Part shown: positions 10,612 through 35,176 of the stretch, piece by piece
Position numbering within the stretch: position 1 is the stretch's first letter
How the letters are laid out: every line of letters begins with the position of its first letter
DNA from: Mustelus asterias
Taxonomy: Eukaryota
DNA: 64,000 nt
Assembly: GCF_964213995.1 (NCBI RefSeq)
Contig: NW_027590122.1
Location: 930,001-994,000, forward strand
Reading direction: 5' to 3'
Position numbers and translations under genes: made by a program
Notes under the pieces: generated by a model
What the model was told of the DNA's origin: nothing
The model's database searches: none
Seen by the model: only the letters and a program-made list of their open reading frames with translations

Positions 10612-10979
10612 TTGTTTACAATAACCTCCCTAATAGTAAATCACACCAGGTTCCAGTGACTTAATCATATGGCAAGAAAGAATACTTTAAATGGTGAATT
10701 CAGAAACTTTATTAATCATTAAAAATTTAACAAGTCAGAAAGATAAAAAAAAACAGAGTGTCGATTAACAGTTAATAGAGAAAGTTTAACTTTTAACAAT
10801 TGAACTGACTTCTCTCCATCCCTCTCACACCAGGACATGAAGTGACCGCTCCAAAAACGTGGATAACTTGTAAAACCAACAGCTCTCGACACTTCTCTGT
10901 AAACATCTCTCCCTCCACCTTTCTCGACCAAATTGCCTTCTCAAGACCACTTTTTTATACTTTAAAAATGTCGAAAGCT

Positions 10980-13900
10980 GAGAGGGAGTGATTGGAGGCA
11001 GCAGTGCTGGTGAGAGATTAATTGAATTGTTTATTTATTTAATTAGTCAGCTGGTGTGTGTTTTTTTTGGCCTTTACTTTTGCAGTAGTATTTTAAGTTT
11101 AAAGTGAAAACTGGAAGTGGGCTGCTAAGGAGTCTGGGAAGGGTTTGTTAAGCGCGCGAAGTATAAAAGGTAGGCTGCAGTATACAGCGGGCAGCGTCGG
11201 GAGCGGGCAGTGGAGTGAGTGGGAAGCAGAGTGCGAGCTATAAGGCTTTGGCTCACAGGGCTTGTGTGGGAAGCAGAGTGTGAGCTATAAGGCTTTGGCT
11301 CACAGGGCTTAGGCAGAAAGGGCGAGCAGGGGTGAGTTTAATTCATTTTTGCTGTTTCTACCTGGTACTGGCAAGGTATCTAGAGGGGATGGGTGTGCAG
11401 GCAGTGCTATGTTCCTCTTGCACTATGTTTGAGGTGAGGGATGACGACAGTGTCCCTGCTGATTACACCTGTGGGAAGTGCACCCATCTGCAGCTCCTCC
11501 AAAATCGTGTTAGGGAACTGGAGCTGGAGTTGGATGAACTTAAGATCATTAGGGATGCAGAGGTGGCCATAGACAGAAGCTTTAGGAATACAGTTACTCC
11601 GAGGAATGAAAACAGATGGGTGACGGTGAGAGGGGCTGTGAGGAAGCAGTCTGTGCAGGGATCCCCGGTGCTCGTTCCCCTTAGCAACAAGTATTCCGCT
11701 TTGGATACGGTTGAGGGGGATGACATACCAGTGGTGAGCCGCAGTGAGAGGATCTCCAGCACTGTGTCCGTCTCTGTGGCTCGGGAGGGTAAGGGGCAGA
11801 GCGGGAGGGCAATAGTTATTGGGGACTCGTTAGTTAGAGGGATAGATAGGAGGTTCTGTGGCAGCAAAAGAGACTCACCGATGGTATGTTGCCTACCGGA
11901 TGCCAAGGTCCGTGACGTCTCAGACCGTGTTTTCCGGATTCTGAAGGGGGAGGGGAAACAGTCACAAGTCGTGGTACACATTGGTACCAATGACATAGGT
12001 AAGAGAAGGGACGGGGATTTAAAGCAGGAATTTCTGGAGCTGGGCTGGAAGCTGAGAGCCAAGACAAAACATGTGGTCATCTCTGGTACGTTGCCGGTGC
12101 CACGTGATAGCGAGTTGAGGAACAGGGAGAGAGTGCAGTTAAACATGTGGTTGCAGGGATGGTGTAGGAGGGAGGGTTTCAGATACGTGGATAATTGGAA
12201 CACATTCTGGGGAAGGTGGGACCTGTACAAACAGGACGGGGTGCACCTGAACCAGAGGGGCACCAATATCCTAGGAGGGAAATTTGTTACGGCTCTTCAG
12301 GGGGGTTTAAAGTAATTAGTCAGGGGAGTGGGAAAAGGAGTTGTAGTCCAGAAGTCAGTGAGGGTGATGAGGTATTGGGGAAGGTATCAGGGTCAAGGGT
12401 GGGTACCGGTAGACAGGAAGGTGGGTTGAAGTGTGTCTACTTCAATGCAAGGAGCATCCGGAACAAGGTAGATGAACTTGGGGCGTGGATTGGTACTTGG
12501 GACTACAATGTTGTGGCCATTACGGAGACGTGGGTAGAACAAGGACAGGAATGGTTGTTGGATGTTCTGGGGTATAGATGTTTCACTAAGTCTAGGGAAG
12601 CTGGTAAAAGAGGTGGAGGAGTGGCATTGTTAATCAAGGATAGTTTAACGGCTGCGGAAAGGCACTTCGAGGGGGATCTGCACACTGAGGTTATATGGGC
12701 TGAGGTTAGAAATAGGAAAGGAGCGGTCACGTTGTTAGGAGTTTACTATAGGCCCCCAAATAGTAATAGAGATGTGGAGGAAGAAATTGCTAAGCAGATT
12801 ATGGATATGTGTGGGGGTCACAGGGTAGTTGTCATGGGGGACTTTAACTTTCCAAATATTGATTGGAACCTTTGTAGGTCAAATAGTTCGGATGGGGCAG
12901 TTTTTGTGCAGTGTGTGCAGGAGGGTTTCCTGACACAATATGTGGATAGGCCGACAAGAGGTGAGGCCACATTGGATTTGGTACTGGGAAATGAACCGGG
13001 CCAAGTGTTAGATTTGGTTGTGGGAGAGCACTTTGGAGATAGTGACCACAATTCGGTGTCTTTTGTTATTGCAATGGAGAGGGATAGGGCCGTACGGCAG
13101 GGCAAGGTTTACAATTGGGGGAGAGGTAATTATGATGCGATTCGGCAAGAATTAGGGGGCATAAGTTGGGAACAGAAACTGTCAGAGAAAGGAACTAATG
13201 AAAAGTGGAACTTTTTCAAGGAACAAATACTGGATGTCCTTGATAGGTATGTCCCTGTCAGGCAGGGAGGAAATGGCCGAGTGAGGGAACCATGGTTCAC
13301 AAAAGAGGTGGAATGTCTTGTGAAAAGGAAGAGGGAAGCTTATGTAGGGATGAGGAAACAAGGTTCAGATGGCTCGATTGAAGGTTACAAGTTAGCAAGG
13401 AATGAGCTGAAAAAGGGGCTGAGGAGAGCTAGGAGGGGACACGAGAAGTCCTTGGCGAGTCAGATCAAGGAAAACCCCAAGGCTTTTTACTCTTATGTGA
13501 GGAATAAAAGAATGACCAGGGTGAGGTTAGGGCCGGTCAAGGACAGTAGTGGGAACTTGTGTATGGAATCAGTAGAGATAGGCGAGGTGATGAATGAATA
13601 CTTTTCTTCAGTGTTCACCAAGGAGAGGGGCCATGTTTTTGAGGAAGAGAAGGTGTTACAGGCTAATAGGCTGGAGGAAATAGATGTTCGGAGGGAGGAT
13701 GTCCTGGCAGTTTTGAATAAACTGAAGGTCGATAAGTCCCCTGGGCCTGATGAAATGTATCCTAGGATTCTTTGGGAGGCAAGGGATGAGATTGCAGAGC
13801 CTTTGGCTTTGATCTTTGGGTCCTCGCTGTCCACGGGGATGGTGCCAGAGGACTGGAGAATGGTGAATGTTGTTCCTCTGTTTAAGAAAGGGAATAGAAA

Positions 13901-14834
13901 TGACCCTGGTAATTATAGACTGGTTAGTCTTACTTCAGTGGTTGGTAAATTGATGGAAAAGGTCCTTAGAGATGGGATTTACGACCATTTAGAAAGATGC
14001 GGATTAATCCGGGATAGTCAGCACGGATTCGTGAAGGGCAAGTCGTGCCTCACAAATTTGATAGAATTTTTTGAGGAGGTAACTCAGTGTGTTGATGAAG
14101 GTAGGGCAGTTGATGTCATATACATGGATTTTAGAAAGGCGTTTGATAAGGTCCCCCATGGTCGGCTTATGATGAAAGTGAGGAGGTGTGGGATAGAGGG
14201 AAAGTTGGCCGATTGGATTGGTAACTGGCTGTCTGATCGAAGACAGAGGGTGGTGGTGGATGGAAAATTTTCGGATTGGAGGCAGGTTGCTAGCGGAGTG
14301 CCACAGGGATCAGTGCTTGGTCCTCTGGTCTTTGTGATTTTTATTAATGACTTAGAGGAGGGGGCTGAAGGGTGGATCAGTAAATTTGCTGATGACACCA
14401 AGATTGGTGGAGTAGTGGATGAGGTGGACAGCTGTTGTAGGCTGCAAAGAGACATAGATAGGATGCAAAGCTGGGCTGAAAAATGGCAAATGGAGTTTAA
14501 CCCTGATAAATGTGAGGTGATTCATTTTGGTAGGACTAATTTAAATGTGGATTACAGGGTCAAAGGTAGGGTTCTGAAGACTGTGGAGGAACAGAGAGAT
14601 CTTGGGGTCCATATCCACAGATCTCTAAAGGTTGCCACTCAAGTGGATAGAGCTGTGAAGAAGGCCGATAGTGTGTTAGCTTTTATTAACAGGGGGTTGG
14701 AGTTTAAGAGCCGTGGGGTTATGCTGCAACTGTACAGGACCTTGGTGAGACCACATTTGGAATATTGTGTGCAGTTCTGGTCACCTCACTACAAGAAGGA
14801 TGTGGAAGCACTGGAAAGAGTGCAGAGGAGATTT
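10980..14834 (+). mobile_element. Young CR1-type LINE with 5'UTR, ORF1 and ORF2, truncated at its 3' end
   Basis: 5'UTR with a 47-bp tandem duplication (11219-11310) and two open ORFs. CR1 homology ends abruptly at GAGATTT 14834. Confidence 0.95.
11389..12315 (+). CDS. CR1 ORF1p: N-terminal CxxC..CxxC zinc motif, coiled coil, SGNH/GDSL esterase-like domain
   Basis: ATG at 11389. Motifs CSSC...CGKC, LQNRVRELELEL, VIGDSLVRG, HIGTND and DGVH. Confidence 0.9.
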   Translation: MGVQAVLCSSCTMFEVRDDDSVPADYTCGKCTHLQLLQNRVRELELELDELKIIRDAEVAIDRSFRNTVTPRNENRWVTVRGAVRKQSVQGSPVLVPLSNKYSALDTVEGDDIPVVSRSERISSTVSVSVAREGKGQSGRAIVIGDSLVRGIDRRFCGSKRDSPMVCCLPDAKVRDVSDRVFRILKGEGKQSQVVVHIGTNDIGKRRDGDLKQEFLELGWKLRAKTKHVVISGTLPVPRDSELRNRERVQLNMWLQGWCRREGFRYVDNWNTFWGRWDLYKQDGVHLNQRGTNILGGKFVTALQGGLK

Positions 14835-14942
14835 GGGCTCGGAGAATCAGAACCCAGACTTTATCATCCTTATCCTGTTTCTTCCTTTGCCACCACTCCC
14901 TCTGTTTTGCGGGAGGGTCGTGGGGATTCCAATCAGAACTAA
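12300..14942 (+). CDS. CR1 ORF2p (APE endonuclease + reverse transcriptase), in the -1 frame relative to ORF1, no AUG before the APE domain, C-terminus lost after 14834
   Basis: APE motifs NARS, ITETW, GDFN and SDH; RT motifs QHGF, GVPQGSVLGP and FADD. The frame is open from TTG 12195 and the first ATG is at 12801. The start coordinate is inferred. Confidence 0.85.
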   Translation, partial: GGFKVISQGSGKRSCSPEVSEGDEVLGKVSGSRVGTGRQEGGLKCVYFNARSIRNKVDELGAWIGTWDYNVVAITETWVEQGQEWLLDVLGYRCFTKSREAGKRGGGVALLIKDSLTAAERHFEGDLHTEVIWAEVRNRKGAVTLLGVYYRPPNSNRDVEEEIAKQIMDMCGGHRVVVMGDFNFPNIDWNLCRSNSSDGAVFVQCVQEGFLTQYVDRPTRGEATLDLVLGNEPGQVLDLVVGEHFGDSDHNSVSFVIAMERDRAVRQGKVYNWGRGNYDAIRQELGGISWEQKLSEKGTNEKWNFFKEQILDVLDRYVPVRQGGNGRVREPWFTKEVECLVKRKREAYVGMRKQGSDGSIEGYKLARNELKKGLRRARRGHEKSLASQIKENPKAFYSYVRNKRMTRVRLGPVKDSSGNLCMESVEIGEVMNEYFSSVFTKERGHVFEEEKVLQANRLEEIDVRREDVLAVLNKLKVDKSPGPDEMYPRILWEARDEIAEPLALIFGSSLSTGMVPEDWRMVNVVPLFKKGNRNDPGNYRLVSLTSVVGKLMEKVLRDGIYDHLERCGLIRDSQHGFVKGKSCLTNLIEFFEEVTQCVDEGRAVDVIYMDFRKAFDKVPHGRLMMKVRRCGIEGKLADWIGNWLSDRRQRVVVDGKFSDWRQVASGVPQGSVLGPLVFVIFINDLEEGAEGWISKFADDTKIGGVVDEVDSCCRLQRDIDRMQSWAEKWQMEFNPDKCEVIHFGRTNLNVDYRVKGRVLKTVEEQRDLGVHIHRSLKVATQVDRAVKKADSVLAFINRGLEFKSRGVMLQLYRTLVRPHLEYCVQFWSPHYKKDVEALERVQRRFGLGESEPRLYHPYPVSSFATTPSVLREGRGDSNQN

Positions 14943-16861: not shown

Positions 16862-17536
16862 TCACTCGTGAACTCGCTGGTGTCTCAGCAGGTGGGATGA
16901 AAGACTGAATCTCTTCTCACACACAGAGCAGGTGAAGGGCCTCTCTCCAGTGTGAACTCGCTGGTGTGTCTGCAGGTGGGATGACTGAGTGAATCCCTTC
17001 TCACACTGAGAGCAGGTGAACGGTCTCTCCCCAGTGTGAATTCGCTGGTGTATCTGCAGGTGGGATGACCGAGTGAATCCCTTCCCACAGTGAGAGCAGG
17101 TGAATGGCCTCTCCCCTGTGTGAACTTGGTAGTGTGTCTGCATGTGGGCTGACTGAGTGAATCCCTTCCCACACTGAGGGCAGGTGAATGGCCTCTTCCC
17201 AGTATGAATGCGCTCATGTGCCCGCAGGTTGGATGAACAAGCGAATCCTTTCCCACACTGAGAGCAGATGAATGGCCTCTCCCCAGTGTGAGCTTGCTGG
17301 TGCCTCCACAGGCTGGATAAATGACTGAATCCCTCCCCACACTGAGAACATGTGAACGGCTTCTCCCCAGTGTGAACTCGCTGGTGTGTCTGCAGGTTGA
17401 ATGACTGAGTGAATCCCTTCCCACACTGAAAGCACGTGAATGGTCTCTCCCCAGTGTGGCTGCGCCGATGAGCTTCCAGCTCAGTTGGGTATCTGTATCT
17501 CTTCCCACAGTCCCCACATTTCCATGGTTTCTCCAT
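16862..17536 (-). CDS. C2H2 zinc-finger protein, 8 fingers, 224 aa, no effector domain
   Basis: MEKPWKC start in a CACCATGG context, 8 complete fingers, in-frame stop 13 codons upstream, splice acceptor TTTTACAG at 17888. Confidence 0.9.
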
Positions 17537-18357
17537 GGTGCAGGTGTCCTTGCCTCTGTCTTGGGTGGACAATCAGTTGAAGCCTCGTCGACACACAGAA
17601 CACGGGTACAGTCTCTACCCGCTGTGAATGGTGTGATATTTATTCAGGCTGTGTAACTGGTTAAAGCCCTTTAGTCCGTGCGCTGGAACACTCTCACTCG
17701 AGTGTGGCAGTGTGTTGGTGCTTTTCCAGTCACACTGATGTTTGAAATCTTTTCAAATCGACAGACTGGACAACCATTTCTCCTTCTAGATTCAAAGTCC
17801 GATGATATTCAGCTTCCAAGGAATATGACTCTGTCAGATCTAGACGTGACGTTTGAGATTTCGGCCTGTGATTCCTCTTTCAATATCCTGTAAAATGAGG
17901 TTACAAAAGTCATCAGTGTCAGGACAGGATAGAAATTCAGAGCAGGATTCTATTTAAAAATGAAAGTGGATGGGCGCTTGAAGGAAATATACTTTCAGGA
18001 GAATGGGGATATAGAGTGGGAATGGGACTGGAATGTTATACAGAGAGTCAGCATGGACTCGAGTTACCGAATGGATTCCTTCTGTGCTGTAATGACTTTA
18101 TGACTGGTAATGTATAACATCGCTGCAGCATTATATTACAATGCAAGAAATAATAATAAATGTATTTTATTACAGAAGCATAAAGAATGTATCTAATCTG
18201 GGTACCATATAATAACACTAGACATATCTCTGTCCTATATTAATTTACTGTCCCCTTAAATGTCAGCCATCTCCTGGGGAAAGCTGCCCTTTAATTGTGA
18301 ACATTAGGAAAAAGACCATCCTTTTAGACAGACAAATAAATGTGTCAAGTTGAGGGA

Positions 18358-33417: not shown

Positions 33418-34966
33418 AGTCCCCTGGGCCTGATGAAATGTATCCTAGGATTCTGTGGGAGGCAAGGGATGAGATTGCAGAGCCTTTGGCGTTGATCTTT
33501 GGGTCCTCGCTGTCCACGGGGATGGTGCCAGAGGACTGGAGAATGGCGAATGTTGTTCCTCTGTTTAAGAAAGGGAATAGAAATGACCCTGGTAATTATA
33601 GACCGGTTAGTCTTACTTCGGTGGTTGGTAAATTGATGGAAAGGGTCCTTAGGGATGGGATTTACGACCATTTAGAAAGATGCGGATTAATCCGAGATAG
33701 TCAGCACGGATTCGTGAAGGGCAAGTCGTGCCTCACAAATTTGATAGAATTTTTTGAGGAGGTAACTAAGTGTGTTGATGAAGGTAGGGCAGTTGATGTC
33801 ATATACATGGATTTTAGTAAGGCGTTTGATAAGGTCCCCCATGGTCGGCTTATGATGAAAGTAAGGAGGTGTGGGATAGAGGGAAAGTTGGCCGATTGGA
33901 TAGGTAACTGGCTGTCTGACCGAAGACAGAGGGTGGTGGTGGATGGAAAATTTTCGGATTGGAGGCAGGTTGCTAGCGGTGTGCCGCAGGGATCAGTGCT
34001 TGGTCCTCTGCTCTTTGTGATTTTTATTAATGACTTAGAGGAGGGGGCTGAAGGGTGGATCAGTAAATTTGCTGATGACACCAAGATTGGTGGAGTAGTG
34101 GATGAGGTGGACAGCTGTTGTAGGCTGCAAAGAGACATAGATAGGATGCAAAGCTGGGCTGAAAAATGGCAAATGGAGTTTAACCCTGTTAAATGTGAGG
34201 TGATTCATTTTGGTAGGACAAATTTAAATGTGGATTACAGGGTCAAAGGTAGGGTTCTGAAGACTGTGGAGGAACAGAGAGATCTTGGGGTCCATATCCA
34301 CAGATCTCTAAAGGTTGCCACTCAAGTGGATAGAGCTGTGAAGAAGGCCTATAGTGTGTTAGCTTTTATTAACAGGGGGTTGGAGTTTAAGAGCCGTGGG
34401 GTTATGCTGCAACTGCACAGGACCTTGGTGAGACCACATTTGGAATATTGTGTGCAGTTCTGGTCACCTCACTATAAGAAGGATGTGGAAGCGCTGGAAA
34501 GAGTGCAGAGGAGATTTACCAGGATGCTGCCTGGTTTGGAGGGTAGGTCATATGAGGAAAGGTTGAGGGAGCTAGGGCTGTTCTCTCTGGAGCGGAGGAG
34601 GCGGAGGGGAGACTTAATAGAGGTGTATAAAATGATGAAGGGGATAGATAGAGTGAACGTTCAAAGACTATTTCCTCGGGTGGATGGAGCTATTACAAGG
34701 GGGCATAACTATAGGGTTCGTGGTGGGAGATACAGGACGGATATCAGAGGTAGGTTCTTCACGCAGAGAGTGGTTGGGGTGTGGAATGGACTGCCTGCAG
34801 TGATAGTGGAGTCAGACACTTTAGGAACATTTAAGCGGTTATTGGATAGGCACATGGAGCACACCAGGATGATAGGGAGTGGGATAGCTTGATCTTGGTT
34901 TCAGATAAAGCTCAGCACAACATCGTGGGTCGAAGGGCCTGTTCTGTGCTGTACTGTTCTATGTTC
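33418..34966 (+). mobile_element. Young CR1 LINE, 5'-truncated, open ORF2 3' part (33438..34892) and intact tail
   Basis: 484-aa ORF nearly identical to the RT region of the 11-14.8 kb element. Confidence 0.95.
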
Positions 34967-35176
34967 TATTAATCCAGAAACTTAGCTGATGTTCTGGGGA
35001 CCCGGGTTTGAATCCTGCCACGGCAGATGGTGGAATTTGAATTTGAAAACAAAATCTAGAATTAAGAATCTACTGATGACCATGAAACCATTGTCGATTG
35101 ACCAAAAAACCCGTCTGGTTCATTAATGTGCTTTAGGGAAGGAAATCTGCCGTCCTTACCCAGTCTGGCCTACATG

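Follow-up and report, generated by a model that had tools for sequence, protein, structure and literature searches.

Introduction

The CR1 element found in the 64,000-nucleotide stretch of DNA analyzed here (the window) raises the question of how its second open reading frame is translated. ORF2 lies in the -1 frame relative to ORF1, within a stop-to-stop span from 12195 to 14942, and its first in-frame ATG is at 12801, which is 3' of the endonuclease start. These features had been noticed in a sequence-only reading of the locus and were confirmed from the sequence; this copy has no AUG that overlaps the ORF1 stop or is close to it. That reading proposed that ORF2p is made as an ORF1-ORF2 fusion by ribosomal frameshifting at a double slippery site.

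The translation of the second ORF of LINEs is described as unclear in an excerpt of PMC3708506, and the worked cases, SART1 and L1, are cases of reinitiation (excerpts of PMC5972666, PMC3708506, and PMC1965478). For Dictyostelium TRE5-A and TRE3-A, a -1 frameshift is needed for ORF2 according to a figure legend in PMC5911963; compared from this legend alone, these are amoebozoan, tRNA-gene-targeting APE-type non-LTR elements, and not CR1. The idea of frameshifting thus exists for other non-LTR elements, and what would be new is the likely mechanism for ORF2 of CR1, a -1 frameshift at U_UUA_AAC. A full-text search found no paper on frameshifting in CR1, although subscription journals and Repbase reports are outside such a search and an earlier mention is possible. 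Frameshifting has no mention in the available parts of the main texts of PMC4120745 and PMC13343379 or of the supplement of the latter, and the term CR1 was not found in the first 300,000 characters of PMC5009743.

Loci and junctions

The genome surveyed has 3.68 Gb, and CR1 is very abundant in it; CR1 is also the most abundant repeat of the chicken (PMC11835228, in excerpt). Loci were the best matches to ORF1 queries, five of which gave matches. The 169 junctions between ORF1 and ORF2 were anchored with tblastn on the DGLHL motif, located 26 codons 5' of the stop, and not on the heptamer; 152 of them are distinct over 300 nt, and together they form ten clusters (subfamilies) that are 55-83% identical upstream. 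The count leaves out L001 and L003-L006, which duplicate the window insertion; L149, which coincides in position with L064; L096-L115, which are repeat retrievals; and L116-L119, which come from other collections. Loci L200-L219 are also repeat retrievals and were used for the pairing tests only.

The CR1 copy in the window

The features of the locus are collected in Table 1. The window copy is 97.4% identical to copy L097 over 3862 columns, and the match ends at 14834, so that the end of ORF2, the 3' UTR, and the tail are missing. Lacking these parts, the window copy cannot be a source element and is a 3'-truncated relic. The reading frame of ORF2 beyond 14834, up to 14942, is unrelated flanking DNA. 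At the other side, position 10975 is the 5' end, and the same end is found in independent copies.

Table 1. Coordinates of the CR1 features in the window.
Feature	Position	Strand	Remarks
CR1 LINE copy	10975..14834	+	5' end kept, ~450 nt of 3' end gone
ORF1	11389..12315	+	308 aa; N-terminal Cys motifs and SGNH/GDSL esterase
G_GGU_UUA, upstream overlapping heptamer	12303..12309	+	present here, not conserved
Slippery heptamer	12306..12312	+	U_UUA_AAG in window insertion, U_UUA_AAC in family
Linker, -1 frame, heptamer to endonuclease	12306..12422	+	without in-frame AUG in window's subfamily
ORF1 stop	12313..12315	+	abuts heptamer; family uses TAA or TAG
G-rich motif, GGGG AGU GGG AA	12323..12334	+	candidate linear stimulator
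ORF2, APE endonuclease and reverse transcriptase	12423..14834	+	PF03372, PF00078; broken off at 14834
Second copy, same CR1 family	33418..34969	+	5'-truncated, 3' end intact, junction missing; 97.6% identical to L097

The esterase of ORF1 was recognized above the cut-off (PF13472, E 7e-12), and the Pfam domain Exo_endo_phos starts at residue 46 of a translation begun at 12303. The CR1 label rests on the esterase domain of ORF1, the APE and RT domains of ORF2, and the likeness of the junction to published rows labelled CR1. The same combination of ORFs is found in the canonical CR1 LINEs of vertebrates (type IV, CR1 subgroup 7; excerpts of PMC4120745 and PMC13343379), and the junction of the window's family agrees with CR1 consensus rows published for sharks and rays (PMC13343379, in part). 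Judged by these features, this is an ordinary CR1 LINE of the esterase type, and the novelty lies in the mechanism and not in the element. The relatives L096, L097, and L098 end in short tandem repeats, with no poly(A), which is a hallmark of CR1. Within the group, poly(A) is unique to Zenon (PMC13343379, in excerpt).

The named ORF1 homologs of the window element are from sharks and rays. One further protein, P0006, is encoded on a 4-kb contig labelled Pseudomonas aeruginosa and is 70% identical to the shark-type ORF1; it is probably host DNA in an assembly carrying that label. The 3' tails are quite different among subfamilies with a common junction (L097, L200, L205, L209, and L218). Nonetheless, L200 and L205 have one common tail despite belonging to different ORF1 clusters, which suggests recombination between CR1 subfamilies. 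The window insertion has been duplicated, together with its flank, at least six times (97-100% identity; L001-L006, on contigs C157, C90, C89 twice, C71, and C648). Several zinc-finger-like ORFs are found within the 64 kb, such as that at 16862-17572, which makes it probable that the window belongs to an amplified gene cluster.

A slippery heptamer is conserved at the end of ORF1

The last codons of ORF1 in the window are CAG (12298-12300), GGG, GGT, TTA, and AAG (12310-12312), followed by TAA, and both overlapping heptamers that the sequence-only reading had pointed out are indeed present and in phase. The survey of the family shows that they differ in conservation. Of the 169 junctions, 156 have the heptamer TTTAAAC where it is expected, followed by TAA in 81 and by TAG in 60, and it is the majority in ten out of ten subfamilies. 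Given that the subfamilies have a common ancestry, these are not ten independent events. G_GGU_UUA is kept in 83/169 copies, being the majority in five subfamilies, a minority in another, and absent from four. Among the 30 loci closest to the window copy, 24 have T TTA AAC TAA and six have T TTA AAG TAA. The flanking DNA 5' of the element is common to these six loci, indicating that they are duplicates of one insertion, and U_UUA_AAG is a private C-to-G change of one dead insertion that gives ORF1 an end in GGLK where the family has GGLN. The site is thus single and not double, with U_UUA_AAC as its conserved form.

The codons used at this place are not those expected from the remainder of ORF1. 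The final leucine is TTA and the final asparagine is AAC in all ten subfamilies, whereas elsewhere in ORF1 these codons account for 24 of 213 leucines and 34 of 89 asparagines, respectively, and TTA is not used at two nearby control leucine columns (0/20). The codon that precedes the final leucine is variable (GGT, AGT, GCT, ACT, CGT, or GAT), and always ends in T. The fixation of TTA, AAC, and the preceding T next to a variable codon indicates, from codon usage, that the constraint at the end of ORF1 acts on nucleotides. The last two codons carry an in-phase heptamer in every one of the ten subfamilies, compared with 4 of 2660 codon pairs elsewhere in ORF1 for a strict X_XXY_YYZ pattern, and 10 of 2660 for a relaxed one. 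The per-copy change is lower in the heptamer, but this was not used as evidence, given the re-centring of the copies on the motif. Three nucleotides before the heptamer (-3; 12303 in the window), at the third position of a codon, the majority base is G in all ten subfamilies, also in those without G_GGU_UUA.

The heptamer in other species

The check proposed with the sequence-only reading, conservation across CR1 consensus sequences, gave a positive answer: TTTAAAC followed by a stop, and then mostly by a run of G, is present in published CR1 consensus rows from sharks to crocodilians (supplement of PMC13343379, in part). The rows include cartilaginous fish (elephant shark, catshark, dogfish, sawfish, and stingray) and other vertebrates (bowfin, coelacanth, bullfrog, alligator, crocodile, and bearded dragon). 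This supplement was searched by motif in rows cut to 400 characters, and the 16 CR1 rows and one Crack-labelled row with TTTAAAC and a stop at the end of ORF1, among 23 matches to TTTAAACTA, show presence and not a fraction; one further row has a TGA stop.

At the protein level, the distant ORF1 representatives that reach the last position of the profile end in L-N in 35 of 35 cases; many others in the list of 150 distant proteins are fragments or have different ends. Snake, lizards, turtles, and swallow are among the named members. In a tree of the SGNH domain, L-N is found in several clades, G-N in one, and some clades have neither. Some distant proteins (P0098-P0155 and others) end in Q-G-N, K-N, or F-F-x, and these endings suggest further heptamers; the DNA behind the alternative endings was examined for two G-N cases only.

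These two cases came from a metagenome scan that gave three loci, of which L116 and L117 reach the ORF1 stop and L118 ends before it. In both contigs, ORF1 ends with G followed by GGA AAC TAG, that is, G_GGA_AAC in the same phase as the heptamer of the window's family. In L116, the -1 frame stays open for 930 codons and encodes endonuclease and RT, with an in-frame methionine at codon 63, just 5' of the endonuclease; the proteins of L116 are 30% (ORF1) and 41% (ORF2) identical to those of the window. The clade is probably invertebrate. All three X bases of the heptamer have changed and the X_XXY_YYZ pattern has been kept, which is the prediction of tandem tRNA slippage, in a swap known from two contigs of one clade. 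U_UUA_AAC and G_GGA_AAC are both among the four shiftiest heptamers in the available part of PMC5009743. Searches of viral contigs, and of this genome with P0144 and P0085 as queries at strict cut-offs, gave nothing useful, and a search of GTDB contigs gave one weak unrelated match only.

The frame of the linker and of ORF2

The endonuclease motif could be located in 152 copies, in the -1 frame in 127, in frame 0 in 14, and in the +1 frame in 11. In the 127 copies with the -1 arrangement, the linker is open in this frame in 111; its frame 0 is interrupted by stops in 125, and its +1 frame in all 127. The linker measures 138-297 nt, with one copy of 498 nt, and its protein sequence is widely variable, which means that the -1 frame has survived many insertions and deletions. 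In seven of the ten subfamilies, the -1 frame is closed 1-5 codons 5' of the heptamer, and entry into ORF2 is therefore confined to the junction. From the heptamer, ORF2 is open for 958 codons in L096 and for 963 in L097, with the endonuclease at about codon 39 and the first AUG at codons 165 and 161, respectively.

An AUG is found in the linker of 30 of the 127 copies, mainly in particular subfamilies (15/19 in subfamily 2, 3/3 in subfamily 7, and 1/1 in subfamily 9). Among copies that stay open as far as endonuclease codon 120, 30 of 32 in the window's subfamily have no AUG before the conserved endonuclease asparagine, and this is also the case for 12/12 and 6/6 copies in two other subfamilies.

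RNA contigs from four runs were compared with L096, and the matches listed contain neither an indel in the heptamer nor a GT-AG joint, which bears on neither frameshifting nor splicing. One contig (run X8, depth 5.7) skips 75 nt of L096 (2125-2201) and rejoins at the first base of the heptamer; its short side has 21 letters and the gap ends in AC..GG, and it is probably a diverged relative rather than a product of splicing.

A G-rich motif follows the heptamer

Most -1 frameshift sites use an RNA structure located 5-9 nt downstream (PMC5009743, in excerpt). CR1 differs from most of the viral sites described there, given that no downstream structure was found and the 0-frame stop abuts the heptamer; a nearby stop is required at an umbravirus frameshift site (same source, in part). 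With folding that does not consider pseudoknots, no RNA structure was found 5-9 nt 3' of the heptamer in the window or in the ten junctions. Local folds of 70-150 nt in the window gave z values from 0.03 to -1.0 against shuffles, and the ten junctions folded at three lengths gave -1.7 at best. No fold beats the shuffles, and the stimulatory structure that the sequence-only reading had suggested looking for in this manner did not appear. A conserved long-range pairing partner for the junction was not found either, with the 3' tail included in the search. Pairing with the 3' tail was rejected because equal or better pairing is reached by 14-48% of internal windows in the five elements analyzed, and it is also disfavoured by the differences between the tails of the subfamilies. 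Pairing with the codons of KSPGPD reaches -18 kcal/mol in the window's subfamily, but is weak in the others and in L116, and the best common pairing positions are simply C-rich, proline-coding stretches.

What is conserved downstream of the stop is a linear motif, which begins 10 nt after the heptamer, with the run of G starting at the 11th base. The pattern G4-N0-4-G3 occurs in 153 of 169 copies but, among 3221 control windows, in only 70. All ten subfamilies have G as the majority base at positions +17 to +20, of which two are third positions of codons, and the second run of G is displaced by one base in cluster 2. The invariant third positions and the one-base shift point to a role of the motif at the RNA level. 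The motif is also present in most of the published rows (supplement of PMC13343379, in part), and L116 and L117 have a looser version of it. Four of the ten junctions are predicted to form a two-tier quadruplex, the window's subfamily and L116 not being among the positive cases; no natural quadruplex stimulator of frameshifting was known in 2016 (PMC5009743, in excerpt). Our guess is that the motif acts as a linear, probably protein-bound, stimulator. A precedent is the nsp2 site of the arterivirus PRRSV, where the linear motif CCCANCUCC is located 11 nt downstream and is bound by nsp1beta and PCBP (PMC5009743, in part). The G-run of CR1 is likewise linear and of low complexity, and its distance from the heptamer is similar. 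Nonetheless, the PRRSV motif is C-rich, acts mainly in -2 frameshifting, and has known binders (same source, in part), whereas that of CR1 is G-rich and its binder is hypothetical.

The ten bases GGGAGTGGGA, found after the ORF1 stop at 12324-12333, recur just before the ORF2 stop in L096 and L097, which belong to the window's subfamily. The two copies of GGGAGTGGGA do not change together in L108.

Alternative routes to ORF2

In termination-reinitiation, ribosomes that have ended ORF1 would begin again on the -1-frame codon that overlaps the stop, be it AUG, AUU, AUA, or any sense codon, and release free ORF2p. An open -1 linker is equally expected in this case. Among LINE RNAs that are bicistronic as that of CR1, SART1 uses a UAAUG stop-start and a downstream element, and L1 reinitiates independently of AUG, with its ORF2 tolerating other sense codons (excerpts of PMC5972666, PMC3708506, and PMC1965478). 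In 150 CR1 copies, the -1-frame codon overlapping the ORF1 stop is AUG in 5, AUU or AUA in 79, and GAA, GUU, GUA, GAU, or other codons in the remaining 66. AUU and AUA are near-cognate starts and occur in the TAA subfamilies, and the 84 copies with one of the three codons comprise one subfamily with UAAUG and four with AUU or AUA. By contrast, the five TAG subfamilies have GAA, GUA, GUU, or GAU at this place. CR1 differs from SART1 in that UAAUG is found in 5/150 copies only, and the heptamer is the conserved feature.

The G-rich motif could also be accommodated by reinitiation, in that the motif, or the UGGGA contained in it, would hold the 40S subunit. UGGGA is the core of motif 1 of the calicivirus TURBS and is found inside the G-rich motif in eight of the ten subfamilies. 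However, TURBS works upstream of the stop (PMC5972666, in excerpt) and the UGGGA of CR1 is downstream; an upstream UGGGA is found at -96 on Trp-Asp codons in six subfamilies, is absent in three, and is mixed in one. Reinitiation also leaves unexplained the TTA leucine, the AAC asparagine, the T that precedes them, and the swap to G_GGA_AAC. As a general account for CR1, it is considered unlikely. Nonetheless, UAAUG, the linker AUGs, and the methionine of L116 indicate that reinitiation may work in some CR1 lineages, alone or beside slippage. An AUG near the ORF1 stop had been counted against frameshifting in the sequence-only reading, and such an AUG does exist, although restricted to the five copies of one subfamily and to three published rows (ScyCan_CR1-1a and SquAca_CR1-17a and -6c, supplement of PMC13343379, in part). 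The five copies (L081, L082, L085, L088, and L094) combine the heptamer with UAAUG, the AUG being in the frame of ORF2, and their subfamily lends itself naturally to a test of two routes, or of a switch between them.

It could also be that there is no recoding, the L-N end being needed by the esterase and ORF2 starting at a downstream AUG. The AUGs found in the linker of some lineages (30/127 copies, and L116) would allow this. Such a requirement for two amino acids does not account for the synonymous codon choices fixed at the end of ORF1, and where the first AUG is beyond the conserved asparagine (30/32, 12/12, and 6/6 copies) a downstream start would lose catalytic motifs. Codon choices and AUG positions already contradict this explanation for most subfamilies, which makes it very improbable. 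Hardly credible is the production of ORF2 from a spliced or separately started RNA, with CUAAU...CAG after the heptamer as branch point and acceptor, given that CTAA..YAG follows the site in three TAA subfamilies (44/51, 7/11, and 4/5) but is absent in six and found in 1/4 copies of a seventh, no AUG would be supplied before the endonuclease, and the phase of the heptamer would have no explanation.

Proposed mechanism

The combination of an in-phase heptamer with an ORF2 that is in the -1 frame and has no early AUG makes it likely that ORF2p is an ORF1-ORF2 fusion. Programmed -1 frameshifting at U_UUA_AAC is the best reading of these sequences, and we consider it probable. The fusion proposed by the sequence-only reading is thus retained, sustained by the site and its phase, the frame of the linker, the published consensus rows, and the heptamer swap, whereas its double site falls. 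Most ribosomes would terminate and release the 308-aa esterase, and a minority would slip back one base, with tRNA-Leu and tRNA-Asn re-pairing from UUA AAC to UUU AAA. The resulting fusion would have approximately 1,270 residues, comprising esterase, linker, endonuclease, and reverse transcriptase, with the junction ...G-L-N/L-I-C-Q-G. A protein search, which is a weak test, found no longer fused ORF1-ORF2 proteins. More tentatively, a pause would be provided by the abutting stop together with the G-rich motif.

The coronavirus IBV uses the U_UUA_AAC that the sequence-only reading had mentioned, and this site and the viral G_GGA_AAC are the same heptamers as those of CR1, in the same phase, and likewise fuse an upstream accessory protein to the polymerase (PMC5009743, in part). 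For the yeast L-A virus, to which G_GGU_UUA had been attributed, the available part of PMC5009743 gives G_GGU_UUU and contains no match for GGGUUUA.

A broader proposition is that esterase-type CR1 elements from sharks to reptiles, and those of a distant clade, obtain their reverse transcriptase from a Gag-Pol-like fusion made by a structure-free -1 frameshift, helped by the abutting stop and by a G-rich linear element that is protein-bound or forms a two-tier quadruplex. This extended form is speculative and rather doubtful as a whole. The binder would be a host protein that recognizes runs of G, such as hnRNP F/H, or ORF1p itself.

If frameshifting is the mechanism, ORF2p of CR1 carries an esterase at its N-terminus, and the ratio of ORF1p to ORF2p is set as in retroviruses. 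Annotations that begin ORF2 at the first AUG would then lose part of the endonuclease, and the junction would provide a short frameshift cassette of natural origin in which no RNA structure is evident. Should the G-rich element be protein-bound or form a quadruplex, the host or the element would gain a switch for retrotransposition.
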